DNA from: an uncultured Acidobacteriota bacterium
GTDB lineage: Bacteria > Acidobacteriota > Blastocatellia > RBC074
Length of the DNA: 64,000 bases
Assembly (NCBI GenBank): GCA_963794955.1
Contig: CAWCGF010000003.1
Location: forward strand, 125,985 to 189,984
Direction of reading: 5' to 3'
A model generated the notes under the pieces. It did no database searches and was not told the origin of the DNA. It saw only the letters and a list, made by a program, of their open reading frames with translations. Of this stretch, positions 90-25,934 are shown one piece after another (position 1 is the first letter of the stretch; every line of letters starts with the position of its first letter). Position numbers and translations under genes: made by a program.

Positions 90-1800
90 TCAATCGAGCC
101 ATCGTCTTTCATGTAACCTTTGATTTCCGCCAAGGCACCGACTGCTGCCAAGGGTGCGATTTGGTTCGATCTGGGTGCGCGTGAAGACGTGGATGGTTTT
201 GTTGCCCACTGTCCAATCACCAAGAAAGCCACGGTTCGCTGGCAGGCTCTTGATCGTGTCGTAGAAGCGCACGAAAGCGATGGCCGCATCTCCTGTGTCC
301 ACATCCTTTTTGACTGTGATGGCCGTAGCATCAATTCCGCCATCAGAGCGGCGGTTGCCTTCCACTTCGACCAATGCGCGCAAGGCGATTTTGCCCTGTT
401 CCTGATTGAGCTTGGTCTCCTGTGCGACGAACACTTTAGCTCCACGCACCGCCCATTCTCCGACAAAATTCTCGGTATTGGGCAACCGCAAAATCATGGT
501 CACGAATTTAATATAACCACCCTGCGAGCTGTCACGGGTTTTGACCGCAATCTTGACCGCTTCCGAGATGCCATCCGCTTTGACGATGGCTACAACTTCG
601 ACGGTTACCCCAGCGGCAAACGCTGCCAATTCATTCCCAAATGCTGTTGTTGCCACGACATTCAATTTGATGCCGCCAACATTCCAGCCGCCAATTTGGC
701 CCCTGGTTCCCGGCAGGCTTTTGATGATGCCGAAGAAGCGGCGATAGCCCGGCGTATCGCGGTCAGGATCAGGCGAACCAACAACAATCTTACTGGCATT
801 TACAGAACGATCCATTTGCACAATGCCTTCGACCGCGACCTGCGAACCCACTTTGACTGGGCCGTAGGGATTGCTCAGGCGGGTCGTTCGGATGACGTGA
901 ACCGTACGCCCGCTGATTTTCCAATCGCCAATTTGATTGGTCGTGTTGGGCAGGCTTTCGACGGTGCCGCGAAACGCGACTTCGGTGGGTTCTGGTTGTG
1001 GGGTCGCAACGGTTTCGATTTCCAGTGCATTGAGCGATTTATCAGACTGGACTACGCCCACGACTTTGACCGTCACACCGATGGCCACTTCGCCGTTGGT
1101 CTGATTGATGCGGGTAGTTGTTGTGACGTGAACAACCCGACCACTGACTTTCCAATCGCCGACGCGTCCGCGTGTGTTTGGCAATTCTTCCACTTTGCCC
1201 AGTATCCTGGTATCAGGAGTCGTGTTCGCCTGGGTTTCGATTTTAACTGCATTGATGGAGCCGTTGCTTTGCAGCAATCCTTCCACCTTGACCGTCACGC
1301 CTACTGCGACCGGACTATTTTCCTGTTGGATTACCGTCGTGGCAGAGACGTGAATAATTCTGCCTCCTACTTTCCAGTCGCCGATGCGTCCGCGCGTGCT
1401 GGGAAGTTCTTCAACATTTCCCGTGACGCTTATTTCGCTACGGCTCGTGGTGCTGGGCGCGAGTTTGACTGTGAGATTTGTCGCACTGATCGTGCGGTCG
1501 CTGTTGACGGCGCCTTTGACCTCGATGTAGGCACCAATGGCGATGGGACTGTTGTTCCGTGTTGACGACCGTCTTGGCCGAAACGCGTATGGTGCGACCA
1601 CCAACTGTCCAGTCGCCCAGGAAATTTGCTGTTGTCGGCAAGGCGCTGATCGTGCCGTTAAATTCCAGTTCACTGCTGGTGATCTGTGCCTGCGCGGGGG
1701 TGGGCAGCATCGGAACCAGTCCGATGAGTAATAGGAAAATGGCGAAAATTGCTTTCAGGGGTTGCCCCTGTGAAGATGTGTGTGGATTTTTCGTATTCAT
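90..1800 (-). CDS. Secreted tandem-repeat protein (DUF5666-like ~55-aa repeats with the GDW-x-VGGR motif), split by a frameshift near 1555-1600
   Basis: ORF 1438..1800 has a signal peptide (LLLIGLVPMLPTPAQA) followed by the first repeat (FLGDWTVGGRTIRVSAKTVVNTEQ). It then runs out of frame. ORF 90..1673 continues the same repeat (NNSPIAIGAYIEVKG...) in another frame, and roughly nine repeats follow. The frame switch maps near ACGGAACAACAGTCCC. Confidence 0.6.
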
Positions 1801-2208
1801 GTTTTACCTCTGGTTGTGTGGTTTGATTGCCGGTCAATGCGAGCGGGCACTCTCCCCTTTACTATACAACCGCTGTGCCGGAACTACGACCGCTTGGAAA
1901 TCATTGTGTAAGTACTTGCGAAAAGACGCCATTACAGTTGAAGGCTCCGAGGCGATTTGGCAGCTTGTTGGTTAGCATTAGTGCGAACAAAGCTTCGCAC
2001 TCTGTGTGCGCACGCGTGTGCATGTTCTGTTTGTGGAAAATAAGTGCTTACGATAGCAGCAAGTTAAGCTATAGTGCGAACTGCCGTTCGCGGTGCGAAT
2101 CCTGCCTCACACCTTTTAGACTAGAGACAGATGATGCCTCCAACGGCGAAGCGTTGCCACCATTACGGTTAGCCGATGGGATGCCGTGTGCAATGCGAAA
2201 ATAAAAGT

Positions 2209-2224
2209 TGGCACATTGGTTGCT
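2209..2224 (+). promoter_or_regulatory. Sigma-54 (-24/-12) promoter upstream of the subtilase gene
   Basis: The sequence TGGCACattggTTGCT has GG at 2210-2211 and GC at 2222-2223, the canonical GG-N10-GC spacing, and a near-perfect TGGCAC-N5-TTGCW match. The predicted TSS is ~2235 and the subtilase signal-peptide ATG is at 2290. Confidence 0.55.
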
Positions 2225-2289
2225 ATCTGCGTTGAAGGGGATGAATGGAAATTCATCCAGGTAGTATTCCTCACAAGGCAAGGGACAAC

Positions 2290-4269
2290 ATGAAACTTAG
2301 CAGATGGTTTTCTCACTCAATTCCTTACGTGCTCCTCACCGCCCTCTGTTGGGGCAACATTGTGTTGCCGGTCGCGCAAGCGCAAGATCACACCAGCCGC
2401 GAGCGTCGCTCCAGTGAGCAGCGCAGCCCACAAAGCCGTACAGCCGTCGAAGCAGAAGGGCGAAAACTTTCCGATGACCTGAAAGTCCGGCTCAGAGATG
2501 GTGCCTCAGCGCGCGTCAAAGTTGTGTTGCAATTCAACGGAACTCTCAGTTCCACGACACAATCGCTACTCAATCAGGCAGGGATTATTAGCCGGGACAA
2601 AGACCGCTTTGAGCGTCTGGCCGCCCGCACTGTAGAAGTTCCCAAAAGCGTGGTAACCCAGCTTGCAGCGCAAAGCGATGTCAATTTTCTTTCGTTGGAT
2701 CAAGAAGTGCGCTCAATGGGGCATCTCTCGGCCACGACGGGCGCGGATGTTGCACGCGGCCTGAGTCGTGGCATCGTGAGCAGTGATCTGGATGGCACGG
2801 GGATCGGCATTGCCATTGTGGATTCCGGCATTGACCGCGCGCACCATTCTTTTCTGGATCGGCGTGGCAACCGTCGCCTTATCGGGGGGCTGGATTTTAC
2901 GGATGTCGAGATCGCCAGGCCGGAAGCGGATTTTTATGGCCACGGCACGCATGTCGCTTCTGTGGCGGCAGGCAATGGCCTCATCGCTGCCAACGCTTAT
3001 CTGGGCATCGCGCCGAATGCCCATTTGCTGAACCTGCGCGTGCTCGATGAGGAAGGGAAGGGCACCGTGACAAATGTGTTACGTGCCTTGGAATGGCTCT
3101 TGACCAATCACCGTGCGTACAACATTCGGGTCGTCAATCTGAGCTTGGGCGCGCCTGCGGTAGATTCTTACCGCAACGATCCGATTTGCCGTGCCGTGCG
3201 CAAATTAGTAGACGCAGGTGTCGTTGTCATCGCTGCCGCAGGCAATAACGGCAAGGATAAAGACGGCAATAAAGTGTATGGCTTGATTCACTCGCCGGGC
3301 AATGAACCCTCGGCGATCACCGTTGGGGCCACCAATACATTCGGCACGGATGCGCGCGCCGATGACAATGTGGCCAGCTTTAGCTCACGTGGCCCTACGC
3401 GCAGTTTTTGGACGGATGCCAACCAGATCAAGCACTACGACAACCTCATCAAACCCGACCTAATTGCCCCCGGCAACAAAGTGATTGCGGCACAAGCCGT
3501 GAATAATGTCCTCGTCAGGCAAAACCCGGAGCTGGATGCGAACGTGACCCGCGACAGCGCGCGCGAGATGATGACGATGAGTGGCACCTCTGTCGCGGCT
3601 CCCGTCGTGGCGGGCGCGGTGGCCTTAATGCTACAAGCCAATCCCACGCTCACGCCCAATTTGGTCAAAGCCATTTTGATGTACACCGCACAACCGCTCG
3701 TGGGCTTCAATCTGCTGGATCAAGGCGCAGGACAACTCAATCTCGAAGGGGCAACACGGTTGGCGAAATTGGTGCGGACGGATTTGAATGCTGCCACACC
3801 GCTCGGTTCTTCGTTGCTGACAAATACGAATAATCTGATTTTGCAATCTACGATCAGTGGCTTCAGCTTCCCCTGGGCGCGCGGCATTTTAGTAGATCAT
3901 ACATTTGCGACGGGCGATGATTTGCTGACGAAATGGCAAAAGACTTATAACCTGGGCGAGTTGCTGACGAGTGGCATCATCTTCAGCGACGGCATTATTT
4001 CCAGTGACCGCTCAGTTTGGACGAGTGGCATTATTTTTAGTGATAACATTTTCGTCAGCAACGGCCTGTCACTCGGAAACGGCAATTTTTTCAGTAGTGC
4101 GGGCATCATTTTTAGTGACGGTATTATCTTCAGCGACGGCATCATTTTTAGTGACGGTATTATCTTCAGCGATATCTTTGTGCAGGCGGAATCCGCGATG
4201 AAAAGTGGTGACGCGACGACAGCAATGGCGGTTGCGCTGGATGATGGAAAGGATAATACGGGTTATTGA
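2290..4269 (+). CDS. Secreted subtilisin-like serine protease (peptidase S8) with C-terminal GIIFSD hexapeptide tandem repeats
   Basis: Catalytic triad motifs are present: IAIVDSGID (Asp), HGTHVAS (His) and GTSVAAPVVAG (Ser). The signal peptide MKLSRWFSHSIPYVLLTALCWGNIVLPVAQAQ starts at the ATG at 2290. The ORF track starts earlier, at 2245. Confidence 0.9.
   Translation: MKLSRWFSHSIPYVLLTALCWGNIVLPVAQAQDHTSRERRSSEQRSPQSRTAVEAEGRKLSDDLKVRLRDGASARVKVVLQFNGTLSSTTQSLLNQAGIISRDKDRFERLAARTVEVPKSVVTQLAAQSDVNFLSLDQEVRSMGHLSATTGADVARGLSRGIVSSDLDGTGIGIAIVDSGIDRAHHSFLDRRGNRRLIGGLDFTDVEIARPEADFYGHGTHVASVAAGNGLIAANAYLGIAPNAHLLNLRVLDEEGKGTVTNVLRALEWLLTNHRAYNIRVVNLSLGAPAVDSYRNDPICRAVRKLVDAGVVVIAAAGNNGKDKDGNKVYGLIHSPGNEPSAITVGATNTFGTDARADDNVASFSSRGPTRSFWTDANQIKHYDNLIKPDLIAPGNKVIAAQAVNNVLVRQNPELDANVTRDSAREMMTMSGTSVAAPVVAGAVALMLQANPTLTPNLVKAILMYTAQPLVGFNLLDQGAGQLNLEGATRLAKLVRTDLNAATPLGSSLLTNTNNLILQSTISGFSFPWARGILVDHTFATGDDLLTKWQKTYNLGELLTSGIIFSDGIISSDRSVWTSGIIFSDNIFVSNGLSLGNGNFFSSAGIIFSDGIIFSDGIIFSDGIIFSDIFVQAESAMKSGDATTAMAVALDDGKDNTGY
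3970..4185. repeat. 18-bp tandem repeats encoding GIIFSD/GIISSD hexapeptides (at least 7 units, partly interrupted)
   Basis: The unit ggcatcatcttcagcgac / ggcattatttttagtgac recurs in the DNA. The protein reads SGIIFSDGIISSD...SGIIFSDNIF...AGIIFSDGIIFSDGIIFSDGIIFSD. Confidence 0.7.
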
Positions 4270-4297
4270 TTGGTCATTGGTTATTGGTCATTGGTTA
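4270..4297. repeat. Heptamer microsatellite (TTGGTCA/TTGGTTA) x4 immediately after the subtilase stop
   Basis: The repeat reads ttggtcattggttattggtcattggtta. The same heptamer array (x5) occurs at 25276-25312, and a shared downstream motif (aatgac...caagtgaca) is present at both loci. Confidence 0.6.
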
Positions 4298-4354
4298 GCG
4301 CGTATCCTAATGCTCGGCTAATGACTACTGACCAATGGCAAGTGACATTTCCTC

Positions 4355-7300
4355 ATGAACAATCGTTCCCTCAAACCTCACTCTGAACTACCCAAACGCA
4401 AGACAAAATTAAGTCTGGTCAGTTTTCAACCACTCGCTGCAACTGCGGCGGAACGAAAGTTGGAAGTGGTTCGCCTGCTACTGGATCAAGGCCGCGCAAA
4501 AGAAGCGCAACAACAACTAGCCACCTTGCTTAAGCCCGGCAAAAACGTTCGCCATGGTGATTCGACGCTGGTCAATGCGCGTTGTGCGTTGTCGCTCTCG
4601 CTGGAAATGCAGGGGCGTTACCGGGAATCGCTCGAAGCTGTTGCCGCTTACGAAGCGAACGAAGCGCGTGAAGGGCTGGACGCCGAGGCCTTGGCGTGCG
4701 TACGTGTGCATCTGGGACTCGCCTATCAATACACGGGCGATCATCCGAAAGCCGTAGCGATTCTCAACACTGCCTTGCGCGAGGCGATAGAGAATCAATC
4801 CGATGCGCAATGCGGCAGTGTCTACGTTGCCCTCGCCCGCGTCTATCGCAGCATCAACGAATACACGATTGCGCGCGGTCACGCGAATCAGGCCTTGGAG
4901 CATTTTCGCGCGATTGGCGATTGGCGCGGAATGGCCGAAGCCTATTTCGGACTCGCCCTCGCCAATGTTTTTGCCGGCCAATGGGAAGCAGGGCTGGAAA
5001 ACCTGGAGCAGGCGCGTTCGTTGATTGGCGAGCATCCCGCCACGTATTTGCTCGGCAAAATTCACACGAATATGGCCGGCGCATGCTGGTTCCTGAAGCG
5101 ACCGCAAGAAGGCATCAGCTACCTGGAAAAGGCCGTAGATTATTACGACCGCACCGAACACAAAGCCAACGCAATGGATGGCTATAACAACCTGGGCGAA
5201 ACGTTGATGCTGGTGGGCGAATGGGATCGTGCGCAAAAGGCGCTTGAACGTGCCCTTGCCTTGGCGCAGGAGATTGATAATCGCCCTGCGGCGGTGGCAG
5301 CGGTGCTGGATTCACTCGGCAAATTGCAAATGTTGCGTGGCAACTTATCCGAGGCGCAGGCATTGCTTGAGCAAGCCGTCGCTACTGCAACGAATCACGG
5401 CAATAAATGGTACGAAGGACAGGCAATTCGCACGCTGAGTCAATGTTTATTGGCCAATGGTGAGATTGCGTTGGCGTTGGAGAAGGCCCGGCAAGCCTTC
5501 ACACTCGGCGAAAAGATTGGTGATCGGCAGGCCATTTGCGAGTCGCGGTTGTTGTTGGGCGAGGCCTTTCTATGCGAAGGACAACTAGATAAAAGCGCGG
5601 CAGAATTGCAGATCGTTTTTGCAGAAACGAAAGATTCCTCGGATGATTTAGCGATTGCTGGCAATGCCCATCGGTTGAATGGGATGCTGGCGTTGGCGCA
5701 GCAAGACAATGCGCGCGCGGTGAATTATTTCGGGCGCTGCATCTCGGTGTTTGAAATGCTCGGCGATGTGTATCGGTCGGCACGGGCGCATTATTGGCAA
5801 GGCCGTGCTTACGCGCAAACGCAACCGCAACGCGCGCGGGAGCATCTGCAGCAAGCCATCAGTGCTTTCCAAAAACTGGGCGCAACCTTGGCGCTGGCGG
5901 AGACGGAAGCCGCCCTGGCAGCGCTCAATCAAACTCCTGCCTTACGACAAGATGAAGTTGCTTCGCTGATTCAGATGCTCACGTTGCGCTTGTCAGAGGC
6001 GACGGCGTCCCGCGAATTATTGCTGCGCGAATTAGGCGCAGTGATTCGTGAAGAAACAGCGGCGCAGCAGCTTTTGATCTTTGAGCCAGCCGCGAATGCC
6101 AGTCAGAAAATTGTTGTGGCCAGTGGTTGGACAGAAGAGGAAAGTCATAATTTGCTGGCTGTCATTCATGAGGCGGCGGATGAAGATGAGCAGGAAATTG
6201 TGACACGCAAACTTGCTTTGACAATGATTCGGCTCAGCCCGACAAAAGCGGCGGCGGCGACGATCCTGCTTGCGCCACCTGATTCTGCGATTTTGCCGTT
6301 TGGGCTTTCGCTCGAATCCCTGTTGCGCGTCGTGGAATTGGGGCTGAACACCTGTGCCTTACACGAAAAAGTGGCGGACGGGTCGGATACACAAGTAGCT
6401 TCAGCGGCAGCCAAGCAAAGTCTGATGCCGGGCTTTATTCATTCGAGTCCGGCGATGTTGCGCCTGGTGGATGAAATCTACAAAATACGCTCTTCGGATG
6501 TGACGGCGCTGGTAACAGGCGAATCCGGCACGGGGAAGGAACTCGTTGCGCGGGCGATTCACGCGCATTCCTCACGCCGCGCCAAAGTGTTCGTGCCGTT
6601 CAATTGCACGGCGGTGCCAAAAGAGCTTTCAGACGCGTTTTTATTTGGCTACAAACGCGGCGCGTTTACCGGAGCGGTGGCGGATTCGGCAGGTGTGATT
6701 CGGGCGGCGACAGGCGGAACTTTGTTTTTGGATGAAGTCGGAGATTTACCGTTGGAGATTCAGCCCAAGCTGTTACGCTTTTTGCAGGAAGGCGAAATCC
6801 AACCGCTCGGCGAACAGCGTCCGATCAAAGTGGATGTGCGCGTGATTGCGGCGACGAATTCTGAGCTGGAAGAAATGGTAGCAGCGGGACGATTCCGCGA
6901 AGATTTATATTACCGGTTGAATGTGATTCGTTTGCGGGTTCCCCCCTTGCGCGAACGGCGTTCAGAGGTGCCGGCCATCGTGAATTACTACGTCAAACAT
7001 TACTCCGACAAGTTCGGACGACGCGATATTCAAATCAGCCCACAAGCCTTGGATTTGCTGATGGTGTATGACTGGCCGGGCAATGTGCGACAACTCACCA
7101 ATGAAATTCAGCGCCTCATCGCGCGCACCGAAGATGGCAGCTTGATTTCGCCCGAACTGCTTTCGCCTGAACTGCGCCGCAACAATGCCTTTGCTGCAAC
7201 TTCCTCGTCGTTGACCACTGGCACAACCCTCTCTCCACAGTTCTGGGAAAACATGACGATGAACGATGCCGTGGAGCAGTTCAAGCAATATGTCCTGAGC

Positions 7301-7414
7301 GAAACCTTACGGAAAAACGGCGGCAACGTTTCGCGCACGGCGCGTGAATTGGGGATGACGCGGCGCGGCTTGCAATTGATGCTGGTGCGTTATCGGCTGA
7401 ATAGTGTGGGATAA
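4355..7414 (+). CDS. Sigma-54-dependent transcriptional regulator (bacterial enhancer-binding protein) with a ~650-aa N-terminal TPR-repeat region and a C-terminal Fis-type HTH
   Basis: The AAA+ sigma-54 interaction domain shows the motifs GESGTGKELVARAIH and GAFTGA and an arginine-finger region. The C-terminus carries an HTH (VSRTARELGMTRRGLQLML). TPR-like repeats run through the N-terminal two thirds. Confidence 0.85.
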   Translation: MNNRSLKPHSELPKRKTKLSLVSFQPLAATAAERKLEVVRLLLDQGRAKEAQQQLATLLKPGKNVRHGDSTLVNARCALSLSLEMQGRYRESLEAVAAYEANEAREGLDAEALACVRVHLGLAYQYTGDHPKAVAILNTALREAIENQSDAQCGSVYVALARVYRSINEYTIARGHANQALEHFRAIGDWRGMAEAYFGLALANVFAGQWEAGLENLEQARSLIGEHPATYLLGKIHTNMAGACWFLKRPQEGISYLEKAVDYYDRTEHKANAMDGYNNLGETLMLVGEWDRAQKALERALALAQEIDNRPAAVAAVLDSLGKLQMLRGNLSEAQALLEQAVATATNHGNKWYEGQAIRTLSQCLLANGEIALALEKARQAFTLGEKIGDRQAICESRLLLGEAFLCEGQLDKSAAELQIVFAETKDSSDDLAIAGNAHRLNGMLALAQQDNARAVNYFGRCISVFEMLGDVYRSARAHYWQGRAYAQTQPQRAREHLQQAISAFQKLGATLALAETEAALAALNQTPALRQDEVASLIQMLTLRLSEATASRELLLRELGAVIREETAAQQLLIFEPAANASQKIVVASGWTEEESHNLLAVIHEAADEDEQEIVTRKLALTMIRLSPTKAAAATILLAPPDSAILPFGLSLESLLRVVELGLNTCALHEKVADGSDTQVASAAAKQSLMPGFIHSSPAMLRLVDEIYKIRSSDVTALVTGESGTGKELVARAIHAHSSRRAKVFVPFNCTAVPKELSDAFLFGYKRGAFTGAVADSAGVIRAATGGTLFLDEVGDLPLEIQPKLLRFLQEGEIQPLGEQRPIKVDVRVIAATNSELEEMVAAGRFREDLYYRLNVIRLRVPPLRERRSEVPAIVNYYVKHYSDKFGRRDIQISPQALDLLMVYDWPGNVRQLTNEIQRLIARTEDGSLISPELLSPELRRNNAFAATSSSLTTGTTLSPQFWENMTMNDAVEQFKQYVLSETLRKNGGNVSRTARELGMTRRGLQLMLVRYRLNSVG

Positions 7415-7477: not shown

Positions 7478-8737
7478 ATGAAACTTATTCGCAACGATAT
7501 TTTTGAGAATCTCAAAATGGCGATGGACACCTTATGGTCGAATCGCCTGCGCTCGTTTTTGACCGTGATCGGCGTGGTGATTGGGGTCTGGACAGTGATG
7601 GCCATTGCTTCGATTATCAGCGGGATTGATTATGCGGTAACCAGTCAAATCGAATCTTTTGGGACGAACTCCATCTTTCTCTACAAGTTCGATCCGGGCG
7701 TTCGGATGGGACGTCCTTCGCGCGAAGAGCGAATGCGCAAGAACTTGACTTATGACGATGCCGTGGCGCTTTCTCAATTATCGGCTATCGAACTTGCAGT
7801 GCCGACGCTCAATGTTTCCAACGATTTTTTTGGACGAAGAATTTCCGTCAAAGGTGGCGGCAAGGAATCAAATGCTGTTGTGTTGCAAGGGACAACCGCC
7901 GATTACGAACGCGCCGGGATTTGGGTGCTGCAAGGCGGACGATTTTTCACCAAAGAGGAAAATGATCGGCGCGCAGAGGTTTGCGTCATTGGTGCCTCGG
8001 TCGCGGAAAATTTCTTTCCGTTTATGCCCTCGCTCGACAAAACAATTGAAATTGGCGGAACGGATTTTCGGGTAGTAGGTATCCTGGAAAAACGCGAGCA
8101 GCTTTTTGGGGGCGGCGATGGGCAAAACGATCAAAACAACGTCATCTTCATGCCCTTTGCCGTGGCGCATAAACTCAAACCACGCGCGGAAGACCTCTCC
8201 ATTCTGGCGATTGCGAAGCCGGGGATGTTGCGCACTGGCATGGATCAAGTGACCGATCTGTTGCGCATTCGCCGCAAGGTTCCCTTTGGCGCGCCCAATA
8301 ATTTTGGAGTTTCGACGGCGGATTCGATCATTGAAACTTTTCGCTCAATTACTTTGGGGGTGGCGATTGCTATGGTGGCGATCTCTTCGGTGGGTTTGAT
8401 GGTCGGCGGCATCGGCGTGATGAATATTATGCTGGTCAGCGTCACCGAGCGCACCCGCGAAATTGGTATCCGCAAGGCGATTGGCGGGCGGCGGCGCGAT
8501 ATTATGTGGCAATTCCTGATTGAAGCGATGACGCTGACCGGAATGGGCGGGCTAATCGGCTTGCTGATTGGTTGGGCGACGACTTTGTTGATTCGGCTGA
8601 TCGTGCCGTCTTATGTACCAGTTTGGGCACCGGTCGTGGGCTTAGTCTCTAGCGTTGGGATTGGTTTGATCTTCGGTTTATGGCCCGCCTGGAAAGCGGC
8701 GCGGCTTGATCCGATTGAGGCGCTGCGGTATGAGTAG
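7478..8737 (+). CDS. ABC transporter permease, FtsX/MacB-like (MacB periplasmic core domain plus four C-terminal TM helices)
   Basis: An N-terminal TM segment (NRLRSFLTVIGVVIGV) is followed by a large periplasmic domain and a C-terminal FtsX-like region (ERTREIGIRKAIGGRRRDIMWQFL...). No ATPase gene lies adjacent. Confidence 0.8.
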   Translation: MKLIRNDIFENLKMAMDTLWSNRLRSFLTVIGVVIGVWTVMAIASIISGIDYAVTSQIESFGTNSIFLYKFDPGVRMGRPSREERMRKNLTYDDAVALSQLSAIELAVPTLNVSNDFFGRRISVKGGGKESNAVVLQGTTADYERAGIWVLQGGRFFTKEENDRRAEVCVIGASVAENFFPFMPSLDKTIEIGGTDFRVVGILEKREQLFGGGDGQNDQNNVIFMPFAVAHKLKPRAEDLSILAIAKPGMLRTGMDQVTDLLRIRRKVPFGAPNNFGVSTADSIIETFRSITLGVAIAMVAISSVGLMVGGIGVMNIMLVSVTERTREIGIRKAIGGRRRDIMWQFLIEAMTLTGMGGLIGLLIGWATTLLIRLIVPSYVPVWAPVVGLVSSVGIGLIFGLWPAWKAARLDPIEALRYE

Positions 8738-10816: not shown

Positions 10817-11593
10817 CTAAAACTTCCGACCGCGATTGTTGTTGATTTTGAGGCGATGGTCATCACCGGTGATTTTGATAACTTTGCACATTTCGTGCAG
10901 GCGAGAACGCAAGCGAACGCCGACGCGATCCGTGAGCGTTTCTTCATTGGGTGAGGTGACTTCGTCAAGATAATTCGTCGTGAAGATGGTGAGCTTTTTG
11001 TCGTTGTAGCGTTTGTTGATAATCTGCGTCATCGTGTCGCGTACCCAATCGGTGGGCTTCGAGGCACCTAATTCATCCAGCACTAACACTTCGGCTTCGT
11101 AGACAGGGGCTAAAACCCGCAGTTCGGAATTTTGTGAAATGGGGTTGTAGCTATCCTGGATTTCCTTGAGCAAATCACGGAAATCATAAAACACACTGGC
11201 AATGCCTTTCCGCTGAATTAGCGAAGCGACGATAGCCGAGGCCAGATGCGTTTTGCCGACGCCACAAGGCCCAATAAAAAGTAAGCCAATTTCCAAATTG
11301 GGATATTCGTCCACTAATCCTTGGGACATTCCCAGCGCGGCTCTTTGTGAGGCTGCATGGGCTGAATTCGGATTGCCTTGGGGATAGTAATTATGAAACG
11401 AACAGCCTTCATAACGTTTGGGAATGCGCGCCGCTTCCAGCAATTGCGAACGCCGATCTGTTGAGCGACAACGGCACGGGCGTACACCTTTCCCTTCTAC
11501 GGATTCCCAGCCCAGGCCACGGCAATATTCACAAGGCTTACGCTCTTCGGCAGGTTGTACTGGGGCGAGGTGAATATTCATCTGTTGTTGCAT
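10817..11593 (-). CDS. DnaC/IstB-like AAA+ ATPase (putative helicase loader) with an N-terminal Cys-rich zinc-ribbon-like segment
   Basis: Walker A is [12 protein letters not shown] and Walker B is VLVLDELGA. The N-terminus carries CEYCRGLGW...RPCRC. There is no adjacent IstA transposase, so it is not called an IS21 element. Confidence 0.7.
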
Positions 11594-15708: not shown

Positions 15709-18700
15709 TTACTTAATATTAACGCGCACGGTGTTAGCCACTTGACCGTCCACTGCCAAGACCACATCCACTTCACCGCGTCCCAACAAGGTGCGGGGCA
15801 ACAAAATATTGACCTGATCCAGGCCAATATAATCGGTTTGGGTTCCGGCATAGACGACATTGACCACCACGCCGCCTACCGTCGCCTTAACCGCAGTGAG
15901 CGCCGTGCGAAAGCGCAGCCCTGTGCCATACAACACCAAATACACTTGATCTGTCACTGGTCCTAGATCAATCGGCAGACTAATGAATTTGTTTTGCATG
16001 GGATCGAAACGTACCATCTGCTCAAAGGTAGAAACCATGTTGCGCACGCGTTGTACCTGACCGGCGGCAATTCCTTTGCCACTGGCGTCGGCAGCAAAGA
16101 TGCCGGGCATGACACGACCGATTTGCATAGTTCCGCTGGAGAAAGCGCCCGCGCTGTTATTGATCGTGATTGTAGCTGTCCCGGTCGTTGTGCCGGGGGG
16201 GATTTGATAATTGATCTGTGTTGGCGAGACAAAGAATAACGGCGCGAGGCGTTCTGTGCCTGCGCTGTCTTTAACGATGATACTGGTTCCGGCCAATGTG
16301 GTTGGGAGCGGCAACGAAGCTGCGGCCAGTGCTCCGCTGGCCAAATTGATGCCAAAGGCGGAAACAATCGCTTCGGTGGCAACGGGCGCTTCGGGTGCAT
16401 AGCTGGCCGCCGAAACGCTCACAGCTTTGGCCGTATGGCGTGAGTAGGTGCGCAAAATGCGGGTGGTATGTCCGGCTTGATCACGGATTTCCACGGCGAT
16501 GGTGAGGGGGCCTGTGAACAAATCAAGCGGTGTCGGCAAATCAATCACCACTGTATTGCCATTGCTGATCCTGGCGCTTGCGGCCAGATTAGTGCCCGCC
16601 GGGACATTGCCCACGGCGCGATCCAGCGTGACGGAAAGCGTAGCGGAATTGATGCCACTTTCCAAATCGTAAGCGCCAATCACCAGGCGCGAGAGGGTGC
16701 GCTCTTTCGTTGCTTGCTCGACCGAGGGCACAAGGGTTAATGTGGGGCGCAGATCATCTTCCAGATAACCCGCATACGTTTTCCAGCCCACAGAAAAGTT
16801 GATGGTGGTCAAATCAATCGGGCAGCCGAGGTCAATCCAACGCACAATTTTCAGGCGCTCATCCCACGTCATTGTGAGGCCCGAATTGGGCGGCGGCATT
16901 TGTTCGCCGGTGTAATCCAGGTCGCAATCGTAAAAGTTAAAGCCGGGCGGAATCGTTGCCGGATTGCTTGGATCGCTGGGCGAAGGACGATCCGCGTTAG
17001 TGCGTCCGTCCAACCTGCGCCCAAAAATCTTCCACGCCAATAAGCTCTGGCGCGCTTGTCCGGCGCGAATGTATTTCGTGACTTGTGGCCAATACCAATC
17101 GCCGAGCGGTGAGAACGAACGCGGCACCGGATTGGCCAGCGGGTCTTTGTGAATGGCTAAGGCGGCATACGTTGCCGGGTAATAGCCATCGGGAATTTGC
17201 TCGCTGGCGCGTCGCATTTCGACCAATTTGTTGTCCCCCAGATCAAGCCCGCCAGCGGGAATGGTGATGCCGTTCGACGAATGGCACGACGCGCATTTCG
17301 CCTGCAAAATTGGGCGAATGTCGCGGAAGTATTCGACGGTTGAGAATCGTTCAGAAGATTCGATGACGCCGGGATGCGCTGAGCCATCCACGCGCAGCAG
17401 CGGTGTCGTTTGCGACAAATCGCGGACTTGATAATCAGGCTTGGCGGCGGCGGTTTGGCTGAACTCCATGGCCGACTTGGCATGCGCGTGACAACCACCA
17501 CAATTAATGCGCTTTTCGCCGGGCGGCAAGCTGTGCCACGTCTGCGCCGTATTCAGCACCAGGCCGTTGCGATCCAATGTTTGAAACGTGAACGGCGTGT
17601 CGGCGGGAATACGAGCTAGAAAGGAGGTGTCGGTATTGCCTTGCAGGTCAAGCACGCCTTCTTTGCGTACCGGGATTTCGCCGAGGATGCGAATGCGTTC
17701 ATTGAAATTGGATGTGAAGCCGCGATAGTTGTCCGGGTAGCGCAAATCACTGGTAGGCTGCATTGCAATCAAGCGCACGGCGTAAATATCGTTGTCGGTG
17801 TAAACGCCTGCATCAGCACCTTGAAACGTCCAGTTGCGATTGCCGTTGTTCCAATGCTGAAAAAATGGGTCACCGTAAAATGGTCGCGTATCGCGCGAAA
17901 TCAGTGATGACGAGCCAACGAGAGCGAGCGGCGTGCCTTCGGGCAAGCGGGCATCGTGCGTGCCATCATTGGCTAACTTCGGCAAATCAACCGGTGCGGC
18001 GACGCCATAAATTTGCTGATACGGCACGACGACGCGCGGCCAAAGCTCGTGATAACGCGGATCGTTTTTGATCAGCACTAATTCAGACGGCGCGTTCATC
18101 ACTTGATCGCCACGCATGCGATAGATTCCGGCGTCGTAATATGGCTGGGTTAAGCCCAAACGGTTGTAATAAATCTTGTGATTGGCCGAACCGGGCGCGT
18201 AGGTCACGAGTAGTTCGTTATTCGGCCCGGCAGACGGTAAAGTAAATTTGCCGACGCGCGAAGCATTGCCGTTCGGACATGGGTCTTGCGACACCAGCGC
18301 ACCGGGAAAGCAGGGGGCAGGATAATCATCTGCTGTCGTGAAAGGCGTGATACGCGTATAGCCGACGCGCTTCAACGGGATTTCTTCATCTGGCATTTTG
18401 TCATCAGGAATCGGCTGAAACAGCGGTGCCGTGCTGTTCGTGTTCACGGGGAAGCGATACAGTTCGCCAAAGCCGTTGTTGTTGAGGTTGTAGTACCGAT
18501 TGACGACAATATCGCCATTGGATATTTGCGTCATAAAGTGATGCGCAATGTCGGCATCGCCAAAACCGGAAAACGTGTCGAAGTTCGTGCCATCCGGCCA
18601 AATTGACCAGAGCATAAAACTGCGATCATCGCGCGATCCCATATTTTCCCACGTCGAAAACACAATGCGCCCATCCTTCAGCACAAACGGGTGCATGGCC

Positions 18701-19707: not shown

Positions 19708-21759
19708 TCATCGAAAGGACGCACGAACTGTATTGGCAATTTGTCCATCTACGCGCAGTTCCACGTCTACTTCGCCGCGCCCCGCCAGGCTGCGAGGCAC
19801 AAGAAGGTTGACTTGATCCAGCCCGACAAAATTGCCTTGCGATCCGGCAAAGACCACACGAGCCGGAACGCCGCCAATCGTGGCCGAGATGTTCGACAAA
19901 TCGCTGCGATAACGCACCCCGGTGGTATAAAGCATTAGATACACTTCATCCGTAGGTTGGCGGAGATCAATGGGAACCGCGACAATCTGCCCCTGGTTGA
20001 CCGTAGCGGCTTGCTCATAGGCCGACACACCATTGCGCACGCGTTGTACGACTGCGGCGGCGATGCCTTTGCCATTGGCAGTGGCTGAAAATGATCCTGG
20101 CATTACGCTGGTAATAATGACCGTGCCTTTCGCTACGACCGCGCCATTGTGGCTCACCAACACTTCGGCCAGGCCATTCGCGGTTCCAGCAGGAATTTGA
20201 TAATTGATCTGGGTGGGCGAAACGTAAAAGAGGGCTGAGAGGCGTTCTGCGCCCGCACTATCACGGACTTTTACGTTTGTGCCCGCCAGCGTGGTGGGTA
20301 AGGGGAGGGTTGTCGCGACTTGTGAGGCGGTCGAGAAGTTGGTGCCGAAGGCTGACACGATGGATTCACGCGCCACTTCAGCACCGCGATAGCTGGCCGC
20401 AGAAACCGTAGTGATGGGGTTAGGAGGACTTGCCAGAGAATTGACGAGGAGCGCGGCTGTGCCTGCTGCGAGGGTAACAGAATTTGTTGCTTGATAACTG
20501 ATCGTTCCGGTAGGAACACCATCGGCGGGCAGATAGCCTCCACCAGTGGCTTGTGCCAGGTAATAGGTTTTGCCCAGATTCATTGTGCGCGTCGTATTCG
20601 TTGGGTTCACGATGACCATTCCATTGCTGTACGAACGGCGATATAAGCCAGTCGCCGAATCGCGCCACCCGTCTACGTTTACCGGTAAACTATCCGTGGG
20701 CGAGCCAATCGGAATATCATATTCAGGGAACCATTCCGGCTCTTGACCAAGCTCCAAATTGACGAAGGTGCGCGTGCCTTTGACGAGCAGATAATTCGCT
20801 ATGTAAAAATTTCTCGCCGTTAAATCATTCGGACTGTCGAGGTAGCTTTGCGCAATGATGACTTTGTTCTGCCGCTCCAAATTCAGGATGCGATTCATCT
20901 GCAATTGCCAGTCAACCAGTTCAAGCAGTGTGTACTGATTCCATTTGGCAAAACCTTCGATCATTACGCCATCTGCTGGGCTGTAATCCGTCACATCACG
21001 GGTTGTCACCCAATGACCGGCATTTGGAATAATCAAATAGCGGCTGCCAAATTGTTGTTTGGTGGTGACCAGCCAGCGCCTGATTTTCTCTGACCACTGT
21101 TTTTCAAACGTCGCATCTACTGCCGGGAAGGCTGGATTGAACCGACCCAAATAATTTGGTACGGACAGCGAATCCATAAACACGCCATCGTCGTCATTCG
21201 CAGCGAGTTGGCGCGCCACTTCACCGAACCAATAACCGCGCCAGCCTGCATCATCGGTGTCCATCAAATAGGAACCCCAATCGCAGAAGAACACGCGATT
21301 CGATCCTGCATAATGATAAAACCAATTATTTTTTACGACCTGCTCGCCGGGATATTCCGGCACCCATTGATTGCCTTCGATCACGCTGATGATTTCGCCC
21401 ATCGGTTGGCAATTGCCCTGCGGGATGCGGTAGCCCAGCGCTTGCCCCAGACGATAATGAAGTATCAAAAAATTAGGATTGTAGGACCGGAATTTATCCG
21501 CATACGAGCGTAGGATTTTTTGCGTCCCGTCATAGTGCGTGGCCGCAAATTTCATCTGTTGCTCGGTCATCGCGCGGGCAATCAATTGATCATTCCAAAT
21601 GTGAATACCCTTCGTCGTATCCGGCACGGAACGCGGCGTAGACGATTGCGCAAACGTGGCGATGGGCATTGTCGTCAGGGAGTTAATCAGCAAAAACAAG
21701 CATAGATAGAATGAGCGACACGTAGACCGCTGCGGGAGAGAACAACGTTCGAAAATCAT
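19708..21759 (-). CDS. Secreted protein: putative TIM-barrel glycoside-hydrolase-like N-terminal domain fused to the same C-terminal (TIGR03437-like) domain
   Basis: The signal peptide starts at MIFERCSL. The ORF track extends to 21876. The C-terminal 230 aa are ~50% identical to the C-terminus of the 15709..19413 product. The family of the N-terminal domain is uncertain. Confidence 0.7.
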   Translation of the reverse strand: MIFERCSLPQRSTCRSFYLCLFLLINSLTTMPIATFAQSSTPRSVPDTTKGIHIWNDQLIARAMTEQQMKFAATHYDGTQKILRSYADKFRSYNPNFLILHYRLGQALGYRIPQGNCQPMGEIISVIEGNQWVPEYPGEQVVKNNWFYHYAGSNRVFFCDWGSYLMDTDDAGWRGYWFGEVARQLAANDDDGVFMDSLSVPNYLGRFNPAFPAVDATFEKQWSEKIRRWLVTTKQQFGSRYLIIPNAGHWVTTRDVTDYSPADGVMIEGFAKWNQYTLLELVDWQLQMNRILNLERQNKVIIAQSYLDSPNDLTARNFYIANYLLVKGTRTFVNLELGQEPEWFPEYDIPIGSPTDSLPVNVDGWRDSATGLYRRSYSNGMVIVNPTNTTRTMNLGKTYYLAQATGGGYLPADGVPTGTISYQATNSVTLAAGTAALLVNSLASPPNPITTVSAASYRGAEVARESIVSAFGTNFSTASQVATTLPLPTTLAGTNVKVRDSAGAERLSALFYVSPTQINYQIPAGTANGLAEVLVSHNGAVVAKGTVIITSVMPGSFSATANGKGIAAAVVQRVRNGVSAYEQAATVNQGQIVAVPIDLRQPTDEVYLMLYTTGVRYRSDLSNISATIGGVPARVVFAGSQGNFVGLDQVNLLVPRSLAGRGEVDVELRVDGQIANTVRASFR

Positions 21760-22611
21760 GAAACAAGACTCCTGGGATTTTGAGAGAAAACACAGAAGGC
21801 CTGCAGCGCCAATGTGAGGCGGGGGATGAGCCTTTACATGGGCAAGGAAGGTGAACGAGCAATGAGGCGAATCCACAAGTTCGCCTCACCGCTCAATCTG
21901 TAGCCATATCAAAGAGGAGGAAATTCGGCTGGGAAACGACTCCACACCAGTCCTGAAACTCTCTTCGGGGACCAATGGCCACAGTGGGGGATAAACCTTC
22001 AGTGCCAGTTACTTATTGTTGATGAGAGAGCGGTTCGACCTCGCATGCCAGAGGGGCTGGGAGGAGGCCGTTTGGTCGCCAAATGGTTGGGCCGTAATCT
22101 GAGCTGGTAGTAACGAAATAGACTGGGGGACAGTAAGAGTGTGAGAATCAACGTACTTTTCATAATTGGTTATCTTTCTGGAAAGCTCCATAGGTGTAGG
22201 TGAGAACCTTGCTTACACTTGCCAGTAGTAAATCCAGCAAATAAAACATACTAGAATTTCACTTTCCTGACTTGGCTCAATGAAAGCTGGGACCTGGTCG
22301 CAAAAGCCTAAACGAGGACTTTCGTTGAGCGCAAATGATTAAGCTTTCAGATCGGGTGTGAGAATGCAGGACATAGGGCTTACCCGGAAATGTTTGTTCG
22401 CAGTGTAGGATGTAAGTAAGCCTGGAAAGAACATCAAAACCCGATGTCGCTTGGGGATGACAGTAGTTGAGATTGCAACTAGGATGCCAAAAGTTGAATT
22501 GTTTTAAACCCACATAGTTACACAAGGCAGGATCAGGGCAGGGTGAAAAAAATACTCAGTTTTCTGGATTGCAATAGGAAAAATTTACCCGCTAAGGCAA
22601 CGGTTAGATCG

Positions 22612-23898
22612 CTATTTTGCTCGCCAAAGCAGACGGCCTGCCACGATGGTAGCACTTGGAGCGCCCGTTAATTCCCATGTATCGAACGGCGTGTTGCGGC
22701 TCTTGGATTGGAAGTTGGCCGCCGCAATTTTAGTTTGTTGGTTTGGCGCAAAAATTGTGAGGTCGGCAATGGCACCGATTTGCAATGTGCCGCGCTCTAA
22801 TTTGAAAATGCGCGCGGGGTTCGTGGCGAGCAATTCAATCATCCGCGTCAGCGAAATGACTTTGCGCTGCACCAAACGATCCAGTGTCAAACTCACGGCT
22901 GTTTCTAAGCCCACAATGCCATTGGCTGCTTGATCGAATTCGAGTGCCTTTTCGTTGGCGTGATGCGGCGCGTGATCGGTTGCAATGGCGTCAATCGTGC
23001 CGTCTGCCAAGCCTTCTAAACAAGCTTCGAGATCGGCTTGTGAGCGCAGCGGCGGCGCCATTTTGCAATTTGTGTCATAGCCGCGCTCATACACCGTAGC
23101 ATCGGTCAGGGTGAAATGATGCGGCGTAATTTCGCACGTCACGGGCAAGCCGCGCTGTTTGGCCTGGCGCACGAAATCCACCGACCGGGCAGTGGAAATA
23201 TGCGCAATGTGAATGCGCGCGCCCGTGATTTCAGCGAGTTGAATATCGCGCGAAACCTGCAAATCTTCCGCTGCGCCGCTCAAGCCTTTCAAACCGAGCC
23301 GCGCCGAATATACTCCTTCGTGCATTGCCCAACCCGGCGAGATGCAACAGTCTTCGCAGTGATCAATCACGGGCAAATCAAAGTCTTTGGCATATTCCAG
23401 CGCGCGCCGCATCATTTCCGCGCTGCAAACCGGCTTGCCGTCGTCGCTGATGCCGACAATGCCTGCCCGCTTCATTTCGCCGATTTCCGCGAGTTGCTCG
23501 CCTTTTGAGCCGTTGGTGATCGCGCCGATGGGAAAGACGTTGGCCAAATTCGCGGCTCTCGCTTTTTCCAGAATGAAGCTGGTGACCGCCGAATTGTCAT
23601 TGATTGGCTTCGTGTTCGGCATGCAGCAAACAGAAGTGAACCCCCCTGCTACCGCTGCACGCGCGCCCGTTTCAATCGTTTCCTTGTATTCCAACCCCGG
23701 CTCGCGCAAATGCACGTGCAGGTCAATAAAACCGGGCGCGACGATGAGGTCAGTTGCGTCAAAGACTTCGACGTCTTCGGTCTTGAGCGATGCGCTGATA
23801 GCTTCGATTTTGCCGTCACGAATGAGCAAGTCGCTTTTGGCTTCGAGCGCTTGCGAGGGGTCAATGATTGTGCCGTTGCGAATGAGTAATAAGGACAT
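22612..23898 (-). CDS. pyrC: Dihydroorotase
   Basis: The [10 protein letters not shown] metal-binding motif is present. The length and conservation fit the multimeric DHOase type. The start was chosen at MSLLLIRNG. Confidence 0.9.
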
Positions 23899-23920
23899 AA
23901 AATAACAATTAAGACTTTGC

Positions 23921-24280
23921 TCAAAACATCTCAATTCTGATGTGCGGCTCTATCCATATCCGAACGCCCATTGGAATTACTGACTCCCCGTCGTACCGAC
24001 TTCCGAATACTTTTGCCGCGGCAAACTCAAGGTAATCAGGATTGTTAATATTTTTCACGCGTCTAGCTCCAGGACAATTCGTGACTCGCGCTTTAAAAAC
24101 GGAAGCTTCAATGCCGTTGCGATAAAGGTCAACGTATAAATCACCAGCGTCTTGGAAGATTGTGATTTCCAACCGAAGATCATCTTTCTCAATTGTGAAC
24201 GAGTGAGAGGTTTCGTACTCTTCGACTTCTGGAAGCACCCCTAGACACTCAATAAACTCGTACTGATCCCAAACTAGCAC
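23921..24280 (-). CDS. Hypothetical protein (119 aa) inserted between pyrB and pyrC, lower GC than its neighbours
   Basis: The intact ORF is co-oriented in the pyr operon. A hand count on part of it gives ~45-49% GC, below that of the flanking genes. No domain was recognised. Confidence 0.5.
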
Positions 24281-24335: not shown

Positions 24336-25289
24336 TTATTCTCCTCCAGCCAGCAAATACAACACTGCCATGCGCACAGCAACGCCGTTGGCCACTTGAT
24401 TGAGGATTACAGAATACGGCCCATCCACGACATCCGATTCGATTTCGACGCCGCGATTGATGGGGCCGGGATGCAAGACGATGGCGTCCGGCTTGGCTAA
24501 TGACAGCCGCTTCAAGTTCAAGCCGTAATGAATCGAATATTCTTTGAGGCTGGGAAAGAAGCCGCCTGCCTGACGTTCCAGTTGAATGCGCAGCATCATC
24601 ACGACATCGGCATCGGCAATCGCTTCGTTGACGTTGGGCGCGAATTGCACAGAGCCTTCGGTGTCGGCAAATTGTTTCTCAAAGCCGTGCGGCAAGAGCG
24701 TGTTCGGCCCGGCGAAATAAACGTGCGCGCCGAGTTTGCTAAGCAAGTAGGCATTGGAGCGTGCGACGCGGCTGTGCAGCACATCGCCGACGATGGCAAC
24801 CTTCAATTCTGCAAGCTTGCTTTTGTTGTGGCGAATCGTGAGTGCGTCGAGCAAGGCTTGGGTTGGATGTTCGTGCGCGCCATCACCAGCATTGATGACA
24901 GCGGATTGCACATATTTCGCAATTTGATGCGGCGCGCCGGAAGACGAATGGCGAATGACAATCGCGTCAGGTGCCATGGCTTCCAGGTTCTGTGCCGTAT
25001 CAATCAGCGTTTCGCCTTTGACCACGCTGGAGGTCGAAGCGGAAATGTTAATGGTGTCGGCAGACAACCGTTTGCCCGCGATTTCAAAGCTCGTGCGGGT
25101 GCGCGTCGAAGCCTCATAGAATAAGTTGATGATGGTCTTGCCGCGGAGCGTAGGCACCTTTTTGATGCGGCGCTGATTGATGTCCCGAAAGGTTTCGGCG
25201 GTGTCGAGGATTAAGTTGATTTCTTCGACTGAAAGTTCTTCGATTCCGAGGAGGTCTTTTCTTGTAAGAGGCATTTGGTCATTGGTCAT
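24336..25289 (-). CDS. pyrB: Aspartate carbamoyltransferase catalytic subunit
   Basis: The STRTR carbamoyl-phosphate binding motif, HPTQ and the HPGP/LP motifs are present. The likely true start is the second Met (MPLTRKDLL). Confidence 0.9.
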
Positions 25290-25312
25290 TGGTCATTGGT
25301 CATTGGTCATTT
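25276..25312. repeat. Heptamer microsatellite (TTGGTCA)x5 overlapping the pyrB start region
   Basis: The array reads ggtcattggtcattggtcattggtcattggtcat. On the coding strand this is ATGACCA x5, so each unit carries an ATG. Confidence 0.7.
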
Positions 25313-25388
25313 ATTTTTTCCCCTAAGAGGTTGCATCAACCTGAAAGCTTGTGTCCCAAACAAATGACAAGTGACAAGTAACCAATAA

Positions 25389-25934
25389 CTATTTGGTTTC
25401 CACCACGACGACTTTTTCATCGTCATCAAATTCCGGCAACATGACTTTGATGATCTCGTGTTCCGTCGTGTAGACATACTTGCCGATATAATCTGCCTGA
25501 ATCGGCAATTCGCGCCAACCGCGATCAACCAGCACAGCCAGTTGCACGCGATGCGGACGGCCAAAATCAATCAACTCATCCAAAGCCGCGCGCACGGTGC
25601 GGCCCGTGTAGAGCACATCGTCCACCAGGATAATCGTCTTGCCTGTGATGTTGGCGGGTAGTTGCGTGCTGTTGACGACGGGTTGTTCGGCGACCGTACT
25701 AAGATCATCACGATAGAGCGTGATGTCGAGCGTGCCGGTAGCGACTTCGACCTCATCCATCTCTCTGATTTTGGCGGCCAATTTTTCCGCCAACGGAACG
25801 CCGCGCCGATGAATCCCGACGAGCAATACGACCGATAAATCAGGGTTGTTTTCGACGATTTGCGAGGCCATCCGCGCCATCACGCGGTTCATATCGGCGG
25901 CGGTCATTACGACGGCTTTTTCTTTGAAGTCCAT
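25389..25934 (-). CDS. pyrR: Bifunctional pyrimidine operon regulator / uracil phosphoribosyltransferase PyrR
   Basis: The PRTase motif [13 protein letters not shown] is present. The length is 181 aa and the gene sits upstream of pyrB. Confidence 0.9.

Follow-up and report, generated by a model that had tools for sequence, protein, structure and literature searches.

A secreted subtilase of Blastocatellia with a predicted sigma-54 promoter and a likely dedicated TPR-GAF activator encoded beside it

What switches on the gene of a secreted protease in a 64-kb stretch of DNA from an uncultured soil acidobacterium of the class Blastocatellia (contig CAWCGF010000003.1; the whole stretch is hereafter called the window), and is the enhancer-binding protein (EBP) encoded just downstream of it the responsible regulator? 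The protease belongs to the subtilases, its gene is preceded by an element of the sigma-54 promoter type, and the EBP carries a long array of tetratricopeptide repeats (TPRs). It is likely that the adjacent EBP drives sigma-54-dependent transcription of the subtilase gene, and that the two form a self-contained module of the Blastocatellia chromosome; genes of pyrimidine biosynthesis and other housekeeping functions are also present in the window, which is thus chromosomal. A local circuit of this kind had been proposed in an earlier note made from the letters of the sequence, and this part of the proposal stands, carried by a promoter element found at 14 of 14 loci, by the gene order, by a cluster of GTGCGAA motifs and by paralogous genes that serve as controls; the sensing of proteins or peptides, which the same note assigned to the regulator, is an analogy.

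The near-consensus -24/-12 element that had been reported at 2209-2224 was located as an exact match to TGGCAC-N5-TTGCW, and TGGCACATTGGTTGCT is the sole exact match in the window. In the local sequence aaaagtTGGCACattggTTGCTatc, TGGCAC occupies 2209-2214 and TTGCT 2220-2224, so that the GG and GC doublets are exactly 10 nt apart, the spacing of sigma-54 promoters. The element is situated in non-coding DNA, on the coding strand, within a 489-bp divergent intergenic region, and its last base lies 65 nt before the ATG of the subtilase signal peptide (2290). Sigma-54 promoters depend on rpoN and start transcription about 12 nt downstream of the GC, and the start is accordingly predicted near 2235. 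No sigma-70-like promoter was found on the plus strand of the subtilase intergenic region. Dinucleotide-preserving shuffles of the window gave 0.12 exact matches per window (12 of 100 shuffles held at least one, on either strand), and with one mismatch permitted there were 3 matches in the window against 3.6 expected. Taken by itself the motif thus falls short of significance, and the case depends on where it lies and on how well it is conserved.

Relatives in which conservation could be followed are numerous, with more than a hundred full-length EBP homologs (about 1020 aa, 60-86% identity), and all the named ones belong to Acidobacteriota, either to the class Blastocatellia or to the family Pyrinomonadaceae. 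A genome scan with the EBP yielded 79 loci, every one from metagenome-assembled genomes (MAGs) of Blastocatellia/Pyrinomonadaceae, and the comparison of the window proteins with these loci by tblastn was the basis of the synteny patterns; single loci are referred to by numbers of the form L001. In group A (L001, L002, L003, L004, L005, L007, L008 and L012; 55-77% identity) an ortholog of the subtilase gene lies directly upstream of the EBP gene on the same strand, and at most of these loci a divergent gene with DUF5666 repeats is present as well. In group B (L024, L026, L033, L045, L068 and L077; 48-53% identity) the subtilase gene is also upstream, with a GNAT acetyltransferase gene in between. 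Both groups fall into basal clades of a neighbour-joining tree of the EBPs, and the order subtilase-then-EBP is kept in every member of these two clades. The sister clade of about 60 loci is paralogous, since three MAGs carry both types; the paralog EBPs have no subtilase gene upstream, and one example adjoins ffh-rpsP-rimM-trmD-rplS. The search from the subtilase side led to the same arrangement, its best database homolog (P0121, at L081) having DUF5666 gene, subtilase and TPR-EBP laid out alike.

All loci were scanned for TGGCAC-N5-TTGCW with at most one mismatch and with the GG and GC doublets obligatory. This gave 31 matches in 1.2 Mb on both strands, of which 17 represent the background (2 x 1.2 Mb), while the other 14, in 13 loci because of a tandem pair in L077, are located 56-290 nt upstream of the orthologous subtilase start. 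The element was thus found at 13 of 13 informative loci of groups A and B and, with L081 added, at 14 of 14, the background rate being 0.003 matches per 400-nt single-strand region; L005 was left out as uninformative, its contig stopping 172 bp before the ATG. The aligned elements share the consensus gcTGGCAyr-N4-TTGCwcT, and their flanks are not conserved. Thirteen paralog subtilases downstream of paralog EBPs had no sigma-54-like site, even at three mismatches. From this distribution, sigma-54 dependence appears very likely for the subtilase orthogroup.

Some other elements of the promoter or leader type were seen in the window and in its relatives. In L007, L001 and L008 a hairpin is kept at the position of the 5'-untranslated region (UTR) stem-loop of the window, with another sequence, and it is absent from more distant loci; it was rejected as a general feature, being confined to the nearest relatives. 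The subtilase genes of group B have long 5' UTRs (about 200-290 nt), in which a conserved box, GTAGCAACGTTTCGA, follows the -12 element at a distance of about 100-130 nt; the window lacks this box. Intergenic DNA on the minus strand of the window (22474-22489) contains a second sigma-54-like element, TGGCATcctagTTGCA, with one mismatch. It is downstream of an amidohydrolase gene (22612..23934, minus) and precedes a GHL15 glycosyl-hydrolase-like gene (21876..19708, minus) by about 600 nt; an open reading frame (ORF) of 52 aa starts nearby at 22163 (minus), and there is no TGCGAA cluster close by. At L083, the sigma-54-like sequence TGGCACgttgtTCGCT (8197-8212) lies 66 nt upstream of a PAS-GGDEF-EAL gene and downstream of two tandem paralog subtilase genes.

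The region upstream of the -24 element holds the densest cluster of TGCGAA/TTCGCA hexamers of the window, six in 300 bp against 0.26 expected, which includes a palindrome and a composite of three half-sites, both with GTGCGAA half-sites. The half-sites are concentrated at 1917-2099, some 100-300 bp upstream. The centres of the palindrome (site 1) and the composite (site 2), two candidate upstream activator sequences (UAS), precede the predicted start by about 244 and 150 bp; the distance between them, 93 bp, corresponds to some nine turns of the helix, and such a geometry is typical of EBP enhancers. At each of the 14 loci the hexamers are enriched over the 600 bp that precede the -24 element, with 2-9 copies per region where 0.2-0.9 would be expected. 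An unbiased search for enriched 6-mers between -350 and -60 at 15 loci ranked TGCGAA at the top, with 54 occurrences against 3.0 expected, present at 15 of 15 loci (p about 1e-47) and followed by the overlapping hexamers GTGCGA and AGTGCG. Clusters of at least three sites per 120 bp are rare, only 14 being found in 1.27 Mb, and 12 of them are located at these subtilase promoters. No TGCGAA elements were found upstream of the paralog subtilases that lie downstream of paralog EBPs; as these also lack the sigma-54 element, the link between EBP and subtilase is not general to the large Pyrinomonadaceae paralog clade.

The arrangement of the half-sites varies among the loci. The composite TGCGAA-N6-TTCGCr-N-TGCGAA occurs in the window, L007, L002 and L081, a TTCGCAcTGCGAA core in L003, L004 and L012, and the palindrome GTGCGAA-N5/6-TTCGCAC in L008 (with N5) and L007, whereas group B has TTCGCAC at -279 and TGCGAA-N12-TGCGAA at -208 and -190. 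Half-sites close to the promoter, like that of the window, are also found in L007 (-25, -40) and L004 (-19). Clades A and B have no alignable intergenic sequence in common apart from the sigma-54 element and the TGCGAA motifs. The recognition helix of the EBP reads TRRGLQL where the gene is linked to a subtilase, whereas most members of the paralog clade have TRRGLYL, a difference that fits a clade-specific binding site. This EBP is probably the protein that binds the TGCGAA sites.

Two clusters of half-sites were observed outside the subtilase promoters. One, at 26679-26733 of the window, was judged to be due to chance, as it extends over the beginning of an ORF on the minus strand and no sigma-54 element is close to it. 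The other, at L018 (7819-7889), consists of three TGCGAA/TTCGCA half-sites in 70 bp directly upstream of a paralog TPR-GAF EBP gene, and it may serve the autoregulation of that EBP.

The target gene encodes a secreted subtilase, as had been read from the sequence earlier: the product matches Peptidase_S8 (PF00082, E 7e-50) and has the catalytic triad in the order Asp-His-Ser, with D177 in VDSGI, H218 in HGTHV and S431 in SGTSV. The ATG at 2290 is preceded by an AAGGGA ribosome-binding site and opens the sequence MKLSRWFSHSIPYVLLTALCWGNIVLPVAQAQ-D; the start at 2245 given in the ORF list is not real, since it is with the MKLS methionine that the alignment of the orthologs begins. By inspection and in a hydropathy plot, the N-terminus has the character of a typical Sec signal, with basic residues, a hydrophobic core (aa 9-22) and AQA-Q, and export is predicted from it. 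The closest solved structure of the catalytic domain is Thermococcus Tk-SP (3afg, E 6e-44), and the source annotations call the enzyme 'AprX'. Pfam (E up to 5) gave nothing for the N- and C-terminal regions and no model on the repeat tail, which carries seven G-I-I-x-S-D hexapeptides in the last 100 residues; the last four stem from a perfect 36-bp tandem duplication at 4102-4172.

The regulator was likewise recognised correctly as an EBP of 1019 aa with an AAA+ sigma-54 domain and a helix-turn-helix (HTH). It matches Sigma54_activat (PF00158, E 4e-66), AAA_lid_14 and HTH_8 (aa 973-1007) and has five TPR_12 stretches, and Walker A (GESGTGKE, aa 722), GAFTGA (aa 769) and Walker B (LFLDEV, aa 790) are intact. 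The closest solved AAA+ domains are those of ZraR (1ojl, E 5e-72), NtrC1 and NifA, and there are weak profile matches to TPR_MalT (40.7 bits, cut-off 45) and AfsR. The earlier note had described about 650 aa of TPR-like repeats in place of a receiver or GAF sensor domain; the TPRs are there, but they end at aa 524 and are followed by a cryptic GAF domain at aa 533-674. Its presence emerged from an AlphaFold model of aa 1-695 (54-sequence alignment, pLDDT score 87), in which aa 1-27 are disordered, aa 31-524 form an unbroken TPR superhelix with about 13 pairs of helices and aa 533-674 fold into a compact alpha/beta domain separate from the superhelix. Structure comparisons of this domain gave KdpD (8.3) and the GAF domains of two sigma-54 regulators, the Aquifex activator Nlh1 (4g3k, 7.4) and one other (3k2n, 6.8), while sequence searches for the middle domain found nothing in Pfam (E up to 5) and nothing meaningful in PDB by phmmer. 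The modelled fold thus identifies a GAF immediately N-terminal to AAA+, as in the GAF subgroup of EBPs. In known GAF-type EBPs (NifA, NorR, Nlh1) the GAF gates the ATPase, and by analogy it most likely does so here, the TPR array being perhaps an additional docking surface. Foldseek against PDB placed the peptide-clamping TPRs of LGN/Pins first for the TPR part (E about 1e-9 to 1e-10) and then generic TPR proteins, e.g. OGT and APC/C subunits; as the LGN/Pins match is generic for TPRs, protein or peptide sensing is speculation by analogy.

Proteins with this N-terminal TPR-GAF region make up a sizeable family, with 111 clusters at 50% identity (E 1e-30 or better). Many members are about 1000-1060 aa long, some have N-terminal extensions, and the named ones are exclusively from Acidobacteriota. 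No description of this EBP architecture was found in the searchable literature, nor were relevant papers on TPR-containing EBPs, sigma-54-dependent subtilases or sigma-54 in Acidobacteria; one apparent match for a TPR EBP was rejected, as it concerned the antibiotic marker 'Tp^r'.

The 85-bp spacer between the two genes forms a long hairpin (-37.8 kcal/mol, z -4.5). It belongs to TTGGTCA arrays of three to five copies with an inverted copy, which occur in two intergenic regions, at 4270-4340 and at 25275-25395 (the heptamer array proper at 25275-25310), with 10 matches against 1.5 expected, and which look like a repetitive extragenic palindromic (REP)-like element. Unrelated strong hairpins are found at the same place in L007 and L001, while the spacer of L003 has only 8 bp and that of L012 is unstructured. 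The hairpin is possibly a partial transcription barrier or a stabiliser of the mRNA 3' end. No terminator with a U-tract is present between the genes, and therefore read-through into the EBP gene is probable; co-transcription from the sigma-54 promoter is, on these sequence features, plausible. Such read-through would amount to positive autoregulation, and the hairpin might then set the ratio of protease to regulator.

These elements suggest the following sequence of events. Sigma-54 RNA polymerase would bind the element at 2209-2224 and be held there as a closed complex, in which the polymerase of sigma-54 promoters generally remains until activated. The cytoplasmic TPR-GAF-AAA+-HTH protein would dock via its Fis-type HTH on the GTGCGAA half-sites at 1980-2001 and 2073-2099 and form an AAA+ ring, whose GAFTGA loop could reach sigma-54 through DNA looping, ATP then being used to open the promoter. 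As in NifA, NorR and Nlh1, by analogy, the GAF would keep the ATPase off as long as a small-molecule signal is missing, and the TPR superhelix of 13 repeats would offer a protein or peptide another surface for input. The transcript would give a Sec-exported S8 subtilase with a tail of hexapeptide repeats, so that extracellular proteolysis would be the output, and read-through might raise the level of the EBP as well, a positive feedback damped by the intergenic hairpin.

The alternative that survives best accepts the sigma-54 promoter as real but has it activated by another, distant EBP, the neighbouring one having other targets and the TGCGAA sites belonging to another factor. Exchange of activators does seem to have occurred in this protease group. 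At L082 (2570-8980) and L086 (2345-9010) a GAF-PAS histidine kinase gene and a gene for an NtrC-type response-regulator EBP are located immediately upstream of a homologous subtilase-GNAT pair; L082 has TGGCACtccgtTCGCA at 5722, about 280 bp ahead of the subtilase, and lacks a TGCGAA cluster, and L084, L085 and L086 have only weak sigma-54 candidates with two mismatches. These loci look like the replacement of the activator at a conserved sigma-54 target, and from this the control of the protease group by sigma-54 seems to predate any single activator. Many paralogs of the TPR-GAF EBP are, moreover, orphans with no nearby sigma-54 target (L080, L087, L088), among them two distant family members (L087, L088) without a neighbouring subtilase. 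Against a distant activator, promoter, TGCGAA cluster and EBP gene occur together in every locus of clades A and B, the cluster is missing wherever the EBP is a paralog or of another type, and the recognition helix common to both clades differs in the paralogs. Activation by another EBP is thus considered unlikely.

Several further points weigh against assigning the promoter to the adjacent EBP. NtrC-type EBPs at homologous subtilase loci imply that activators are exchangeable and that adjacency is not proof, and the link of the TGCGAA sites to this HTH is correlative. The related loci all come from uncultured MAGs, and they share phylogeny, so that 14 of 14 does not equal 14 independent events. 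No IHF-like site (WATCAR-N4-TTR) was matched between enhancer and promoter (1900-2210), rpoN is not among the genes of the window, and the intergenic hairpin, as a repeated element, may be functionally neutral.

Another possibility accepts the adjacent EBP but closes the circuit through peptides. Peptides made by the subtilase, or its own GIIFSD units, would be re-imported, bind the TPR groove and activate the EBP, a sigma-54 analogue of the RRNPP systems. The likeness of the TPR superhelix to peptide-clamping LGN/Pins TPRs and a gene order that permits positive feedback are in line with this, as are the recent perfect 36-bp duplication in the tail and the behaviour of the tail repeat G-[IV]-[ILV]-x-[SG]-D (window, L014, L034, L049, L071 and others), which is homogenised inside each protein and different between lineages (GIIFSD, GVLASD, GVLAAD, GVIISD and GILISD). 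However, paralog subtilases without a linked sigma-54 promoter have more repeats, 16-27 copies, and end in them; no oligopeptide permease is linked to the module; and the LGN match is generic for long TPR arrays. Faint Hexapep/LbH matches in some homologs fit a structural left-handed beta-helix, and the tail is probably such a helix, not a peptide precursor. The re-import of peptides is consequently held to be very improbable. A product-sensing loop in which subtilase-released or GIIFSD-type tail peptides would be clamped by the TPR and relieve the inhibition of AAA+ by the GAF is also very doubtful; if it existed, it would be a Gram-negative, sigma-54 counterpart of RRNPP, by which a proteolytic oligotroph might detect protein substrates or kin.

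That the -24/-12 match is due to chance and the subtilase is read from an unrecognised housekeeping-type promoter has a practically negligible probability, for even though exact matches arose in 12 of 100 shuffles and the poor definition of acidobacterial sigma-70-type promoters makes the negative sigma-70 scan weak evidence, the conservation of the element, present at 14 of 14 orthologous loci where 0.003 per locus would be expected, effectively refutes it, and the EBP gene adjoins and an enhancer-like repeat cluster lies at the canonical distance.

Activation by the neighbouring EBP therefore remains the preferred reading, and the features on which it is based are collected in Table 1.

Table 1. 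Positions of the promoter, enhancer, gene and domain features around the subtilase and EBP genes (window coordinates)
Feature	Position	Strand	Remark
DUF5666-repeat secreted protein gene, divergent	90..1800	-	context only; syntenic in closest relatives
Distal TGCGAA half-site, putative UAS cluster	1917..1922	+	
UAS site 1 (putative), palindrome AGTGCGAA-N6-TTCGCACT	1980..2001	.	8+8 nt, 100% complementary
UAS site 2 (putative), composite AGTGCGAA-N6-TTCGCGG-TGCGAA	2073..2099	.	three half-sites
Promoter-proximal TGCGAA half-site	2194..2199	+	10 nt before -24 element
Sigma-54 -24/-12 element TGGCACattggTTGCT	2209..2224	+	exact TGGCAC-N5-TTGCW match
5'-UTR stem-loop GGATGAAT-ggaa-ATTCATCC	2239..2258	+	near predicted mRNA 5' end; weak feature
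Subtilase, 659 aa	2290..4269	+	Peptidase_S8, PF00082, E 7e-50
Subtilase predicted signal peptide	2290-2385	+	
Subtilase S8 catalytic domain	2794-3714	+	D177, H218, S431
Subtilase C-terminal GIIFSD hexapeptide repeats	3973-4173	+	
Hairpin of (TTGGTCA)n repeats and inverted copy, no U-tract	4270..4340	+	subtilase-EBP intergenic
EBP, 1019 aa	4355..7414	+	TPR-GAF-AAA+-lid-HTH
EBP TPR superhelix	4445-5926	+	aa 31-524
EBP cryptic GAF domain	5951-6376	+	aa 533-674
EBP AAA+ sigma-54 interaction domain	6437-6934	+	GAFTGA at 6659-6676
EBP lid	6950-7201	+	
EBP Fis-type HTH	7271-7375	+	

An apparent frameshift of 1 nt near 1550 (1545-1556), within GAACAACAGTCCC, divides the divergent DUF5666-repeat gene into an N-terminal ORF with a signal peptide (1800..1438) and the remainder, in ORF 1673..90. 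Its ortholog in L007 is unbroken and encodes 935 aa, and the break indicates either a pseudogene or an assembly error. The promoter scan found no sigma-54 element directed at this gene. Farther away in the window, an IstB-like ATPase gene (IS21 helper; 10817-11593, minus) is located just beyond an SLT transglycosylase gene, with no obvious IstA transposase ORF adjoining, and it may be a remnant of an insertion sequence. A protein of 1234 aa is encoded at 15709-19413 (minus), its sole Pfam match being the middle domain of hydrazine synthase alpha (E 7e-11). Rfam and tRNA scans of the window gave no matches.

Acidobacteria are among the most abundant phyla of soil, and proteinaceous substrates are believed to be the main resource of Blastocatellia and Pyrinomonadaceae, while to our knowledge the sigma-54 regulons of Acidobacteria and the sensors that govern them are almost unstudied. 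The locus offers a concrete, testable module of promoter, predicted GTGCGAA enhancer motif, dedicated activator and secreted-protease output. What it adds is a TPR-GAF input architecture for the catalogue of EBP sensor modules, a predicted enhancer motif that can be used for mapping the regulon of this regulator in MAGs, and, among the conserved targets of sigma-54 in Blastocatellia, very probably a secreted subtilase. The apparent exchange between the TPR-GAF EBP and an NtrC-type pair at homologous subtilase loci shows, in addition, how sigma-54 modules are rewired.

Compared with characterised systems, the protease resembles the Tk-SP/AprX-like subtilases in its S8 domain with D-H-S, the N-terminal propeptide region and the extra C-terminal domain, but its tail consists of G-[IV]-[ILV]-x-[SG]-D hexapeptides with no Pfam match and its transcription is predicted to be sigma-54-dependent. 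The regulator shares with the RRNPP receptors (Rap, NprR, PlcR, PrgX) a cytoplasmic TPR fused to an HTH and encoded beside the gene of an exported product. It differs from them in that no small pro-peptide ORF is adjacent at the locus, which places it outside this family, in the diderm organism and in the GAF and AAA+ motor inserted between TPR and HTH, and no RRNPP proteins were among the top 50 fold matches of its TPR model. With MalT and other signal transduction ATPases with numerous domains (STAND), and with the Streptomyces antibiotic regulatory protein (SARP) AfsR, it has in common the fusion of an ATPase and a DNA-binding domain with an extended, superhelical sensor of TPRs. Its ATPase, however, is a sigma-54-type AAA+ (PF00158, GAFTGA) and not a STAND NTPase, so that it does not belong to the MalT/STAND class; moreover, in contrast to MalT and AfsR, the sensor is N-terminal, in reversed order, and transcription would involve sigma-54, not sigma-70.

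The activators of the NtrC/ZraR type are closer, as they share the AAA+ and HTH_8 modules, with ZraR (1ojl) the best match. NtrC also uses 18-bp inverted repeats (TGCACC-N5-GGTGCA) in two copies 100-250 bp upstream, to which TGCGAA-N6-TTCGCA would correspond here. The EBP of the window, unlike these activators, has no receiver domain and no partner kinase, and the NtrC-type pair beside the homologous subtilase at L082 and L086 implies that the two types of regulator are alternatives. The greatest likeness is to the GAF-type EBPs (NifA, NorR, FhlA and Aquifex Nlh1/Nlh2), in which a GAF abutting the ATPase is likewise followed by AAA+ with GAFTGA and a Fis-type HTH, and in which a cognate sigma-54 promoter with upstream palindromic sites is found beside the regulator gene. 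The differences are the TPR superhelix of about 500 aa and 13 repeats before the GAF, a GAF that escapes every sequence profile, and a secreted protease as the target instead of nitrogen, nitric oxide or formate metabolism. It is well supported that the mechanism is that of a standard sigma-54/EBP module, closest to the GAF-type EBPs, an ordinary circuit with an unusual regulator.

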